A DNA stretch of 64,000 nt from Eledone cirrhosa (taxonomy: Eukaryota): the NCBI GenBank assembly GCA_964016885.1, contig OZ024750.1:10788001-10852000 (forward strand). Reading direction: 5' to 3'. The notes beneath the pieces are model-generated. The model did not search any database. It was given only the letters and a program-made list of their open reading frames with translations, and was not told where the DNA came from. Each line of letters begins with the position of its first letter. The stretch's first letter is position 1. A program made the translations under genes and the position numbers. This document shows positions 55,890 to 61,084 of this stretch, piece after piece.

Positions 55890-56160
55890 CGTTATTCCGG
55901 GTTGAATCGGAGGTAACCACAGTAAGTAAGGTACTCAATACATAGCAGAGTATAACAGTTTTAATATAGATGAGATTCTACAGGACTAGAACTGTTTCAT
56001 TCATTAGAAATCATCAGGAATCTGGGTATCAAAAAATAAATATGGTATTTATAGGTCTCTACAAGTGGTAGGAGAGGGTGGGGAGTGGGATGGGTGCAGG
56101 TCATTGGTTGATAGAAAAGGGAATTCATTAAAAGCTAATTCTACAAAGCTATAGTTAAAT
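55890..56160 (-). mobile_element. Family G pseudo-LTR, non-palindromic copy starting at (TA)n
   Basis: Near-identical to 60585-60852. Possible internal sub-repeats continue to about 56450. Confidence 0.85.
55973..56023 (-). ncRNA. Type I hammerhead ribozyme motif with intact core
   Basis: Minus strand AGATTC-CTGATGA-tTTCtaatGAAt-GAAA-CAG-ttctagtc-CTG-TA-GAATCT. Perfect 6-bp stem I, weak stem II, stem III ACAG/CTGT, GUA site. Confidence 0.8.
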
Positions 56161-56604
56161 TTTATTTATATTTATTTATGTTTTTAAAGTAACAAAGGCA
56201 GACAGAATTCTATAAACAGGTTCCGGATGGCATACCATTCCTTGTCAATAAGTTTCTCTTAAGCTAACAGATGTCTATAAAATCAGTGGGGGGTCAGTCA
56301 TGCTCGATAGAATTAAAGAAAAGGGAGATTCTTTAAAAGCTAAAGTCATTAAGGTTCTACTAAGTGACAAAGGTCTAGGGAATTCTGCAGACAGATTCAA
56401 AATACTGAGTGCATATCTTACTATTATCTTCGAACTTCTCTTAAACTAATCAACAATATGCCAAAATCAACAGACACATTCACAAAAAAACAAAAAAAAC
56501 AAAAAAAAAACAAAAAAACAGAAAAACAAAAAAACACACATAAAAAACAAAAAAACACACATACTCACTCACACACTTATATATATATGTATATATATAT
56601 ATAG

Positions 56605-56790
56605 CTTTCTGATTTAGGCTCAAGGCTACCAATTTTCGGGCAGGGGAAAATCGATTACTGGTACTTTATATTATCCAGTGCATTACTGGTACTTTATATT
56701 ATCGACCCCGTAAGGATGAAAGACAAAGCTCACCTCGACAAAATTTGAACTCAGATCGTAAAGGGGCGGAACCCTATGCCATAAAGCATG
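56605..56790 (-). mobile_element. SINE S1, diverged
   Basis: Core and B box on the minus strand. Confidence 0.8.
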
Positions 56791-57124
56791 TTCGACAGAA
56801 TAAAATGATTTGTGGTAAAAGTGACAGGAATGTTATAGCGTTCGTTTTTTTGGTGGTGGTGGTGGTGGTGGTGGTGGTGGTGGTGGTGGGTGGTGGTGGT
56901 GGGGGAGACTTAATGTAACTACTTAGTCATAGTTATTAAATAAATCGAAACGACATTTGAAATTTCGTGTCAAGGGTTTGTAGGGGGTCATGGCTAATCT
57001 AAACCCCGGAGAAAACTGCAGTTATTTCCACTTTAGTTGAAATAGAAAAATTACCAACAAAAGTTTACGCATAATATACGTTACTGTAAATAAAGACACA
57101 AGTAACGTCCTGGAGTTGTCAGTA

Positions 57125-57665
57125 AGGACATGAGAGAGAAGGAAAAGTGGGGAGAAGAAAAAGGGGACATGAGAGAGAAGGAAAAAAGGAGCCATGAGAG
57201 AGAGAGAGAGGAAAAGGGAACAGGAGAGAGAAAGAAAAAAAAAAGGGGGGGGGGGCAGGATAGGGAAGGAAAAGGGAACAGGAGTGAGAAGGAAAAGGGA
57301 ACAGGAGTGAGAAGGAGAAAAATGGGATATGAGCGAGAAGGAAAAAAGAGGGCAGGAAAGAGAAGGAATAAAAAGGGACCAGGAGAGAGAAGGAAAGGGA
57401 CAGGAGTGAGAAGGGAAAGGGGGACAGGAGTGAGAAGGAAAGGGACAGGAGTGAGAAGGGAAATGGGGACATGAGAGAGAAGGAAAGGGACAGGAGGGAG
57501 AAGGAAAGGGACAGGAGAGAGAAGGAAAGGGACAGGAGAGAGAAGGAAAGGGACAGGAGAGAGAAGGAAAGGGACAGGAGGGAGAAGGAAAAGGGGGACA
57601 TGAGAGAGAAGGAAAGGGACAGGAGGGAGAAGGAAAAAAGGGGAACATGAGAGAGAAGGAAAAGG
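57125..57665. repeat. About 21-bp purine-rich minisatellite
   Basis: Unit GGACAGGAGAGAGAAGGAAAG. Confidence 0.9.
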
Positions 57666-57822
57666 AGAGGGAGTAAAGTTTATAAATGAAAATTAGAATT
57701 GTGGGTAAAGAAATAAGCAAATGAAAGATTTTCTACTTTTCCTTCATTTTGATGTTTTTTTAAAATACTTTATATGAAATAAATCTTTTGTTGTCATTTT
57801 ATGGGTCTTTTAGTTGATGTGT

Positions 57823-57941
57823 GAAGGCGCGTGGCTGAGTGGTTAGAGAATTGGATTCACAATCGTGAGGTTGTGAGTTCGATTCCCGGACCGTGCGATG
57901 CGTTATGTCCTTGAGCAAGTCTTTTTATTTCACGTTGCTCC
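57823..57941 (+). mobile_element. Second tRNA-derived SINE (CORE/V-type central domain), 5' part
   Basis: A box GTGGCTGAGTGG, B box GAGTTCGATTCCC, then TGTCCTTGAGCAAG. Confidence 0.75.
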
Positions 57942-58828
57942 TTCTACCTGGAGTTGCGACCGATAGATAGTATTAGCAATTGGAAAGACCAATGGAAGCA
58001 TTATTTCCTCGGTCCGATTTGACGAAAGTCGTCGTTCCTTAGTTGATGTAATTAAACAGAAATCTTAGTTGCTGGGGAGTAAGTGTCTAAAAAGTTAAAT
58101 TCATGAATCTCCCTTATGATAAAGGCACTGTACTCCTATATAGATGGATTAAGATACAGAAAGTAGGGATGTTTTTTTTAGCAATTGTTTCCTGCTTGTT
58201 TTTCTTTTCTTTTAGGTTTGGTGGAAAGTATTCAGTGTCGACAGAGAAACTGCATTCAGTAAGAATTGTTTCTAAGAAATAAACTTTATAAAACGAAGCT
58301 AACACAACCTACCCATCTGACATTACGAACCAAAGAGGGAGTCTTTATGAGGTCGCTCGGTCTTCTACAAATATCAAAGACACCTTCTTATAAAACACAC
58401 ACTAACATCTTTCAAAAAAGTAAAATACATATTTGACAGTGTAGTCCAGGATATACTCCGTCACTTTGCTTGGAAATAAGATTGTATAACCACCACTGCA
58501 GCGTCTTTAATCCTAAGTTTGCTCGATCATGGCTAACTTCAGACTTGATGACAACGACAACAACATATTTGAACCACTTTGCTTCCTTATATCTAGTTTC
58601 GTAGAAGTTGAACGCGTGTCATATCTATGAATGATCCAAATAGATATTGTAGGAAACAAAATCTGCCTCCACAACAATCTCTTGTTTTCATTTGATCATG
58701 AATTTACAGAAGAATTTAAAACACGTCAATCGTAGACAGAAAATACGACCCAGGCAGTTGTACTATACATCCCCAGTTAAATGGAACGGATTAAACATGT
58801 ACCTTTTTGTTGCGATTGTTAAAATATA

Positions 58829-59096
58829 TATCTAGGGCGGGTAAAATTCCCGAGATCCATGGACGAGTTCTCTCCAGCGGTCTCTGTCCCTCATCATCTA
58901 TGCCATGTCCTGCGTCTCCAAGAGACCAGTGTCTATCCTTAGGGCATCAACATACGTCAACCTCGGTCTCCTTCTTCTAGTGTGTGTTGCAGGGGCTCCT
59001 ACAGGAGTACTGAGTGTCCAGCTAACCTCAGTCTCCTCTGTGCTACTTCCGAGCTGACTTTTGGGAGGCTCCCGTAAAGCTCTGAGTTCTTCCCCC
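58829..59096 (-). mobile_element. 5'-truncated RTE-group LINE with a 12-bp TSD
   Basis: Minus strand encodes ELYGSLPKVSSEVAQRRLRLAGH...RRRRPRLTYVDAL...DRDRWRELV. TSD TGTTAAAATATA at 58817-58828 and 59097-59108. Confidence 0.85.
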
Positions 59097-60232
59097 TGTT
59101 AAAATATACGCCACTTATAATCATTATTTTATTACTTTAACATATTTCAACTTATCATTACTACTGGTAAACATTTCCTTTCTGTCTGTTTGTCTATCAT
59201 ATTGTCCTCCTATCTCTGACGAAGTTTTCTGCTCACAACTTCGGACTACTTTTCTTAAAGGCAAAACATTTTATTCCACTTGACTAAATGTTTGTACTTA
59301 CTTTTTGCCGCTACGAATCAGCATTTGATTCCTTAGATTCTACTGTTTCACTATCTTAACATTTATATTGGTACTACATTGGCAAACAATTGGAAGTAGA
59401 ATTAAATGGTTTTCACGAGGAAAATTCAATGCTTACTGAAGAATAAGATTTCATCCTTTGAATTAAGCATTCATGACACGAAATACGAATGCTGGCACCT
59501 AATCTATTTGGCTATTTCTTGCTTACAAACGGCGTCGTGTTGTTGTCAGAAGGTTGTATCTCTGTTTACTGTACGTTTTAAAGAATCGATGTAGTATCTT
59601 AATTGATACGTTGATATATAGGCTAAACAAATATCTCAATCAATATAAAAAAAAAAATACATTTGATAAAATGATTTCGAAATACATGTTCAGTCGTTTT
59701 AAGATAAAATGTAGATACAACAGTATTGCCTAATTTAGCTTTACAACGTTAAATAGTTTGTCTGTCTAATTTTATGAGAGTAATTTTGGTTACAATGTTA
59801 TGGAATTGTCAGACTATTATCTTCATTCTTTCTGTTCCTCTTTACATTTCACAAGCTCTCTTTCCCATTTTTCTTTCGATGATTCAGATCGAAAGTTAGG
59901 GTACATCTCCGAGTAGAAGATTCTTCATCGACCACATGATTGCAGTACATATCGAGTTCCCTTTCTTCTCACATTCTGCTAAACTTAGTGTTGCCTACAA
60001 AGTTCAGTTACAGCCATCCATATTCGTTCATTTGCAGATTGACGTCTTATATACAACTACTTGTAGTTACTCATATCTTCTACACTTAGAATCATTCTAA
60101 CGCAATTCAAACTACATAGAAAGCACCTCTAAATGGGGATATGATGATAGAGTAATTTTCAACAACATAAGTACACAATCTATCCTTATCGAGCCCTCTT
60201 TGGATTTTAGTCTTCACATTTATTATTATTAC

Positions 60233-60373
60233 TATATATAAATAAATATATATATATAAATAAATATATATATATAAATAAATATATATAAATATATATA
60301 TATATAAATATATATATATATAAATATATATATATATAAATATATATATATATAAATATATATATATATAAAT

Positions 60374-60404
<31 letters not shown>

Positions 60405-60423
60405 AATATATATATATATAAAT

Positions 60424-60504
<81 letters not shown>

Positions 60505-60540
60505 AATATATATATAAATATATATATATATAAATATATA
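60233..60540. repeat. (TA)n/TAAA array
   Basis: Directly visible. Confidence 0.95.
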
Positions 60541-60584
60541 ATCTCGGGAATTTTATCCGCCCTATATATATATATATATATATA

Positions 60585-61081
60585 CGTTATTCCGGGTTGA
60601 GTCGGAGGTAACCACAGTAAGTAAGGTACTCAATACATTGCAGAGTATAAAAGTTTTAATATAGATGAGATTCTACAGGACTAGAACTGTTTCATTCTTT
60701 AGAAATCATCAGGAATCTGGGTATCAAAAAATAAGTATGGTATTTATAGGTCTCTTCAGGTGGTAGGAGAGGGTAGGGAGTGTGATGGGTGTAGGTCATT
60801 GGTTGAAAGAAAAGGGAATTCATTAAAAGCTAATTCTTCAAAGCTATAGTTTATTTTTAAAATAATGTTACTCTAAAAATATTACTCTAAAAATAAACTA
60901 TAGCTTTGAAGAATTAGCTTTTAATGAATTCCCTTTTCTATCAATCAATGACCTACACCCATCCCACTCCCTACCCTCTCCTACCACCTGAAGAGACCTA
61001 TAAATACCATACTTATTTTTTGATACCCAGATTCCTGTTGATTTCTGAAGAATGAAACAGTTCTAGTACTGTAGAATCTCA

Positions 61082-61084
<3 letters not shown>
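60585..61084 (-). mobile_element. Fold-back element G: about 200-bp inverted arms (about 60659-60859 and 60886-61087) plus a ~75-bp tail, between (TA)n tracts
   Basis: Arms are near-perfect reverse complements, each with a hammerhead motif. Confidence 0.92.
60668..60718 (-). ncRNA. Type I hammerhead ribozyme motif with intact core
   Basis: Minus strand AGATTC-CTGATGA-tTTCtaaaGAAt-GAAA-CAGttctagtcCTG-TA-GAATCT. The mirror copy at 61029-61079 (+) has CTGTTGA. Confidence 0.8.

Follow-up and report, generated by a model that had tools for sequence, protein, structure and literature searches.

We analyzed a 64,000-nucleotide stretch of Eledone cirrhosa DNA (assembly GCA_964016885.1, contig OZ024750.1, positions 10,788,001 to 10,852,000 of the forward strand; hereafter, the window) that carries a repeat, family G, in two forms. 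One copy is linear. The other is a fold-back, in which two arms are joined head-to-head. We consider it likely that both copies are 5'-truncated 3' ends of a Penelope-like element (PLE) that targets (TA)n runs, probably of the Hydra clade, and that the palindrome formed when folded cDNA copied itself during insertion. This insertion pattern has already been described for PLEs, and a linear copy together with a fold-back is a textbook PLE footprint.

Anatomy of the two copies

Coordinates of the features are listed in Table 1. An ungapped alignment of the linear copy with the left arm of the fold-back spans 297 nucleotides (55868-56164 versus 60563-60859), of which 282 (95%) are identical. The left and right arms agree at 202 of 211 positions, and at 200 of 208 after trimming (60659-60866 versus 60881-61088). 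Private differences in the 191 columns that could be compared three ways number 8 in the linear copy, 2 in the long arm and 4 in the short arm; therefore, the fold-back arms are each other's closest relatives. They have 8 variants in common against the linear copy and differ from each other at 6 of the 191 columns. The 3' end of the linear copy is sharp, at 55890. In the fold-back, the corresponding tail (74-76 nt) is present on the left arm only, and the short arm stops in a TATA approximately 14 nt past the cleavage site and is followed by (TA)n.

The original prediction was that the linear copy runs on beyond the point at which the other copy folds back. The copy does continue past the axis; the axis itself, however, as read from the sequence, maps to ~56192-56194 of the linear copy, beyond an AT-rich stretch, and not to 56160. 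Within the continuation, unit B is a diverged copy of unit A (109 of 147 aligned columns identical). The alignment score of 76 was reached by 0 of 2000 resamples, and a shorter test version gave 11 of 2000. This duplication argues that the sequence beyond the axis is itself part of the element. A check for a partial tandem of direct pseudo-long terminal repeats (pLTRs) detected only this old internal duplication and no second hammerhead. The far boundary of the linear copy likely lies at ~56445-56577, as judged from the next (TA)n run.

At the axis, TTACTCTAAAAATA occurs exactly twice (60868-60881 and 60882-60895), as had been noted. Its interpretation as a scar of template switching is ambiguous: because both 14-mers carry a base that is absent from the left arm and from the linear copy, the duplication may instead reflect later slippage. 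The view that the palindrome is a derived insertion product, and not a pair of terminal inverted repeats (TIRs), is borne out by the unequal arms, which abut across 14 nt, and by the linear copy, which has no inverted end. The hallmark of TIR elements and miniature inverted-repeat transposable elements (MITEs), i.e., equal TIRs on every copy, was not found in this unequal pair and single-ended copy.

Table 1. Features of the two family G copies in the window
Feature	Coordinates	Strand	Remarks
(TA)n target flank, 3' end of linear copy	55819..55889	.	
Linear 5'-truncated copy	55890..56577	-	minus strand taken as element sense; far end inferred
Tail, 74 nt	55890..55963	-	missing from the short arm of the fold-back
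Bulged tail hairpin, linear copy	55931..55951	-	4-bp outer stem, 3-bp inner stem, 2-nt bulge
Type I hammerhead, core intact	55973..56023	-	predicted cut after 55979
TATA-like box	56046..56053	-	30 nt upstream of stem I; promoter role speculative
Duplicated unit A	56084..56260	.	contains 22 AT-rich nucleotides (56157-56178) with no counterpart in the fold-back
Duplicated unit B	56285..56442	.	diverged copy of unit A; no protein homolog, no third-position bias
(TA)n run, likely far target flank of linear copy	56578..56603	.	preceded by an A-rich tract
Fold-back copy	60585..61088	.	head-to-head, both 3' ends outward, between (TA)n runs
Tail on long arm	60585..60658	-	bulged hairpin at 60626-60646
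Long, tail-bearing arm	60659..60866	-	
Type I hammerhead, core intact, long arm	60668..60718	-	
14-nt tandem duplication at the axis	60868..60895	+	
Short arm	60881..61088	+	
Mirrored hammerhead with A6U core change	61029..61079	+	changed base at 61038

The hammerhead motif

In the two minus-strand hammerheads, CUGAUGA and GAAA are present together with the cleavage triplet GUA and a stem I of 6 bp, and the mirrored plus-strand copy reads CUGUUGA, all in agreement with the earlier description. The conserved core plus three helices are present in two of the three copies, and the hammerhead scan turned up an equally complete motif in 1 of 50 sequences simulated from a Markov model of the window. 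The motif is located in the terminal repeat, on the sense strand (as judged from the position of the tail), and its cut site lies 89 nt from the 3' end.

The ribozyme had also been called intact. This is true of the core, but the fold is weak. Helix II consists of 3 bp closed by U·U in place of G-C, and its probability in the isolated motif is 0.15-0.19, i.e., the stable helix II with G10.1-C11.1 is not seen. Helix III consists of 4 bp with an 8-nt self-complementary loop, and the minimum-energy structure differs from the hammerhead fold. Rfam yielded 0 matches for the whole window at the gathering score, and at E<=5 the regions around the copies gave hairpin and low-complexity matches only, with no hammerhead families among them. 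The helix III strand has energies of -12.8 kcal/mol as a self-duplex versus -1.4 kcal/mol as a hairpin, which fit the dimer mode described for PLE hammerheads. We regard the hammerhead as a weak minimal type I motif, and it is predicted to depend on a dimer or on help from a protein.

Read-through RNA of the fold-back is predicted to form a hairpin of -350 kcal/mol, and the pairing probability of the hammerhead helices in the read-through RNA of both strands is 0.0. In this model, both ribozymes would be trapped in a 208-bp hairpin, and the fold-back would therefore yield double-stranded RNA and not cleaved RNA. Because of the weak fold and the read-through hairpin, the intact core is no evidence of activity at the fold-back locus. 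The A6U change in the mirrored copy is expected to be strongly damaging; a literature search for the term A6U returned nothing matching.

The intact ribozyme had been placed on the tail-bearing arm. A special meaning of this position was not supported: with one core change among 4 arm-private substitutions, P is 0.25. The strongest figure for this idea is that 3 of the 4 private substitutions of the short arm lie inside the 51-nt motif (P=0.059). In another fold-back (63063-63424) CUGAUGA is kept on both arms, and in a further one (28603-28757) the damaged arm is the tail arm, with a deletion through the motif. Given the P value of 0.25 and these two contrary cases, we rejected the idea that selection keeps the ribozyme of the tail arm intact, and the broken ribozyme on one arm is probably a product of neutral random decay.

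Class assignment

Since no open reading frame (ORF) for a reverse transcriptase (RT) or GIY-YIG nuclease was found, PLE membership, which we consider likely, rests on four non-coding features. The copies show 5' truncation with a head-to-head inverted copy, an optional tail on one end only and a sense-strand hammerhead in the terminal repeat, as is characteristic of PLEs, and this anatomy supports the PLE reading made in the original prediction. Insertion into (TA)n and a complete hammerhead near the 3' end are Hydra features, and on the basis of the U·U base of helix II and a shared tail hairpin we favor, with some reservation, membership in the Hydra clade. Insertion into (TA)n is not exclusive to Hydra elements because some Naiads share this target; Naiads, however, lack a complete 3'-end hammerhead, unlike the Hydra clade.

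Several observations weigh against this assignment. No PLE-type RT or GIY-YIG ORF is linked to either copy. Pfam detected 0 families in 8 short frames of the element and in 3 frames read through stops, word-index searches for homologous proteins with the longer candidates only were empty, and an Atlas protein search gave no usable match. No credible remnant of a PLE emerged from a six-frame motif scan of the window, and the C-terminus of a Hydra endonuclease (EN) was unrecognizable in the 450 nt upstream of the hammerhead. The 74-nt tail exceeds the published 30-40 bp, and the tail motif discussed below was defined on the same sequences and compared with Hydra elements only. Selection on the hammerhead could not be demonstrated, as variation among the three copies is too sparse (P=0.18). 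Finally, the U·U base of helix II is not clade-specific because an axolotl retrozyme also has it (PMC7229834). The copies themselves are too short to require RT/GIY-YIG coding sequence.

Two apparent coding signals were discarded. Matches of phmmer (E 5e-4 and 9e-4, plus-strand frame only) were to unrelated tandem-repeat proteins and were rejected as summed-repeat noise. A 65-aa plus-strand ORF with a DKG-like word was rejected as coding, with mismatches between the units of 17/11/10 at codon positions 1/2/3.

Fold-backs elsewhere in the window

A masked self-comparison of the window revealed 17 local inverted pairs, of which 9 were examined; the 8 left out comprised 7 with a ~190-bp dispersed repeat and 1 short AT-rich palindrome. 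A one-sided extension of 39-138 nt was present in 7 of the 9 fold-backs, one of them running off the window, and of the remaining two, one had an internal deletion and one had no one-sided tail. Because tailed fold-backs recur in several unrelated families, this architecture is a property of the insertion machinery and not of family G. All 9 axes are near-symmetric, with spacers of 0-36 nt and arms of 31-212 nt, and therefore self-primed copying is favored. Independent truncation would rarely reproduce such symmetry (P ~2.5e-4, with arm lengths drawn from a pool of 7 from which deleted and partial copies were excluded), a value that is only rough because families were mixed.

Individual fold-backs differed in their details. 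The one at 13151-13574 is spacer-free and 212/212 identical, with a 138-nt one-sided tail to ~13710; it is either a very recent insertion or an artefact. Its tail carries an extended bulged hairpin, and a hammerhead-like core, possibly with a very long helix II, was seen by eye near the axis. Three fold-backs of another family (18112-18290, 28360-28561 and 28603-28757) have a one-sided tail and an axis inside the hammerhead, and both arms retain no more than the 3' half of this motif, with a 6-bp helix III and a palindromic loop; two CCCTAA-like repeats occur in the fold-back at 28360-28561. At 63063-63500, a 19-nt spacer, CUGAUGA intact on both arms and a 78-nt tail with a bulged hairpin were found, and at 63793-64000 a fold-back leaves the end of the window, with a 79-nt tail and a hairpin variant containing a U·G pair. 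The fold-back at 16536-16906 is tailed on one side (39 nt), and of a hammerhead core it holds just the first half, reminiscent of the 'half core' noted for some Naiad elements. At 62851-63020, a fold-back with a 4-nt loop has neither a hammerhead nor a one-sided tail.

Other relatives are not folded back. Degenerate family G relatives at 16178-16330 (minus strand) and 28793-28905 (plus strand) are truncated within helix II and have kept helix III and the tail hairpin. A solo hammerhead-like motif with a long helix II region adjoins (TA)n at 17961-18035 (plus strand), and an insert ending in (TA)n at 63640-63765 (plus strand) carries a strong form of the tail hairpin, with 6 bp, at 63713-63739.

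Origin of the palindrome

Our proposal for the insertion is as follows. The GIY-YIG nuclease of the element would nick a (TA)n run, and RT would initiate at an internal position of the RNA, where the tail has its far end, as suggested by published PLE biochemistry. Synthesis would pass the tail and the hammerhead and then stop early, presumably having reached further in the linear copy than in the fold-back. In the latter, the 3' end of the cDNA could prime its own copying near the site equivalent to 56192-56194 and be copied back. The second arm ends at the TATA just downstream of the hammerhead, where it enters (TA)n, and therefore only one arm is tailed. Joining would occur through TA microhomology, and later neutral decay of the arms would include one change striking the hammerhead core.

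The main rival keeps the PLE origin but has a dimeric enzyme prime on each of the two target strands (twin priming), so that the arms would be separate cDNAs, with tail-plus and tail-minus starts, joined head-to-head. The anole PLE protein, a predicted dimer, cuts and extends both strands, and its two RT start sites bracket the tail, which would directly explain a one-sided tail (PMC11167929); some axes in the window also have spacers of 15-36 nt. We nevertheless regard twin priming as unlikely: spacers stay at 0-36 nt regardless of arm length, copies of one related family fold at differing positions, and independent truncation predicts far larger asymmetry (in a rough model with families mixed). 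A different question is whether the element was ever autonomous. Family G could be a non-autonomous, retrozyme- or SINE-like (short interspersed nuclear element-like) PLE derivative of ~700 nt that never bore an ORF and moved in trans, which is compatible with insertion by self-priming. The linear copy seems to be delimited by (TA)n at either end and shows no coding trace, and animal retrozymes have been proposed to be derivatives of PLE pLTRs (bioRxiv 10.64898/2026.07.22.740005). The head-to-tail array of hammerhead units that defines retrozymes is absent, however, and published Hydra 3' untranslated regions (UTRs) reach hundreds of nucleotides, one with an internal repeat (as seen by eye); therefore, a truncated autonomous copy with a long UTR is also compatible with the data, and we find a non-autonomous origin possible but rather doubtful.

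Two further explanations are very improbable. A foldback or MITE-type DNA transposon, with the arms as TIRs and TA as the target duplication, would account for the TA flanks and the long inverted arms, and a TA-flanked 22-bp TIR pair is located immediately to the left (58835-58856 and 60541-60562). Its TIRs, however, match nothing in family G; moreover, one arm of the palindrome has a 74-nt unpaired terminal extension, no internal sequence separates the arms, and the linear copy is single-ended. Long palindromes in AT-rich sequence can also be artefacts of assembly or of read fold-back, and another fold-back in the window is 212/212 identical, but here the arms differ at 6 positions plus the duplication, the two flanks show no relationship to each other, and several unrelated families share the tailed architecture. 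Self-primed copying of a truncated PLE cDNA remains the reading that we prefer.

A bulged hairpin in the tail

Among 11 tail segments chosen by eye, 10 form a hairpin in which a 4-bp outer stem is combined with a bulge of 2 nt and an inner stem of 3-6 bp, and the sequence of the inner stem varies between families with pairing retained. The remaining segment had just 1 bp in the register used by the script; for the tail of the long arm, the script picked another register, and the matching one came from a separate analysis. A strict pattern of the hairpin had 7 matches versus a mean of 0.57 in 30 simulations, and its 10-nt core had 7 versus 0.58, but these controls are post hoc because both patterns were defined on the same sequences. 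In the supplement of PMC8557442, Hydra-2_Amil and Hydra-2_Ajap show, as judged by eye, a similar hairpin behind the hammerhead, and Hydra-1_Ajap has one at its 5' start. A full-text literature search of incomplete coverage found no earlier description, which is weak evidence for novelty, and the conserved bulged hairpin is possibly undescribed so far.

We tentatively suggest, as an idea that may well prove wrong, that Hydra-type PLEs targeting (TA)n share a conserved RNA structure in the tail, in several families of the window as well as in consensuses from cnidarians and echinoderms. This bulged hairpin, with a 4-bp RCUC/GAGY stem, a 2-nt bulge and an inner hairpin of variable sequence, would serve as a signal for RT loading or initiation and set both 3' ends. 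Together with snap-back synthesis, it would produce dense, near-perfect hairpin inserts that trap the ribozyme and seed long double-stranded RNA genome-wide. The tail hairpin is the part most worth following, as a candidate cis-signal for a clade without biochemistry.

Neighboring features

Directly to the left of the fold-back, a 22-bp TA-flanked inverted repeat pair (58835-60562; 0 chance matches in 100 shuffles) encloses approximately 1.7 kb in which no obvious transposase ORF was seen. It is likely an old TA-targeting DNA transposon. A region inside it near 58900-59100, which we take by resemblance to be a possible 3' fragment of a long interspersed nuclear element (LINE), had no Pfam match. 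A 434-aa ORF with three C2H2 zinc fingers (6046-7350, plus strand) is presumably Sp/buttonhead-like. The ~190-bp dispersed repeat is SINE-like, of high copy number and present at many sites (e.g., 490-699, 19973-20173, 27483-28096, 39756-39973 and 56606-56790), including a head-to-head palindromic pair at 52723-52903.

Implications

Recognition of the PLE footprint is mainly of use in the annotation of such repeats, which are readily mistaken for MITEs. The fold-backs in the window constitute a small natural data set on inverted PLE insertions with a one-sided tail, whose axes favor self-priming. If transcribed, such fold-backs could provide editing or small-RNA pathways with long double-stranded RNA as a substrate.

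Comparison with published systems

PLEs typically have a 5'-truncated copy in inverted orientation, with one end tailed (Craig et al. 2021, PMC8557442). The same source defines the Hydra clade as inserting into (TA)n and bearing a hammerhead near the 3' end, with Penelope-13_HM, Hydra-2_Amil, Hydra-2_Ajap and Hydra-1_Obim as examples; in Penelope-13_HM, a 5'-truncated copy is attached in inverted orientation. We compared the present copies with the published Hydra consensuses by eye. The copies described here share with the clade (TA)n insertion and a sense type I hammerhead within ~100-200 nt of the 3' end and, with many of its members, a short helix II with a U·U base, which by our own count occurs in 14 of 26 Hydra rows of File S2. 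Unlike the clade, they have no linked ORF; the hammerhead sequence differs from that of Hydra-1_Obim, and the helix III loop is 8 nt versus 1-3 nt in the listed Hydra motifs. PLEs make up 6.83% of the Octopus vulgaris assembly (PMC13282606), and the supplement to that paper contained no sequences that matched four short motifs.

Hammerheads of PLEs cut poorly in vitro and have a dimer mode (Cervera and De la Pena 2014, PMC4209133), and the hammerhead motif of the anole PLE needs its protein (PMC11167929). Like these minimal motifs, the present one has a type I topology and a self-complementary helix III loop suiting dimers, and dual motifs on opposite strands occur 100-700 bp apart; unlike them, it is without the conserved G10.1-C11.1, and its helix II is short and not long (PMC4209133). 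The axolotl HHR_Amex2, which has a U·U helix II base, shows weak cutting as a monomer and better cutting as a dimer (Cervera et al. 2020, PMC7229834). Metazoan non-LTR (long terminal repeat) retrozymes likewise are short non-coding units with a type I hammerhead (PMC7229834). They form head-to-tail arrays that give circular RNAs, whereas family G is represented here by one solo and one head-to-head copy, and therefore release of unit-length RNA would be impossible.

The inverted-pLTR insertions of Penelope/Poseidon elements (PMC3846280) and of the anole PAc (PMC11167929) differ in that the tail is ~30-40 bp and runs into the start of an ORF, which does not follow here, and in that 8-10-bp target duplications may occur, whereas the target here is (TA)n. 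In vitro, two internal RT start sites bracket the tail (Frangieh et al., PMC11167929), and palindromes at head-to-head junctions in Adineta vaga have been interpreted as products of self-priming (Arkhipova et al., PMC3846280). The present fold-back resembles these insertions in its head-to-head arms, its junction palindrome, the optional tail at one end, the AT-rich target and the TATA-like box in the repeat.

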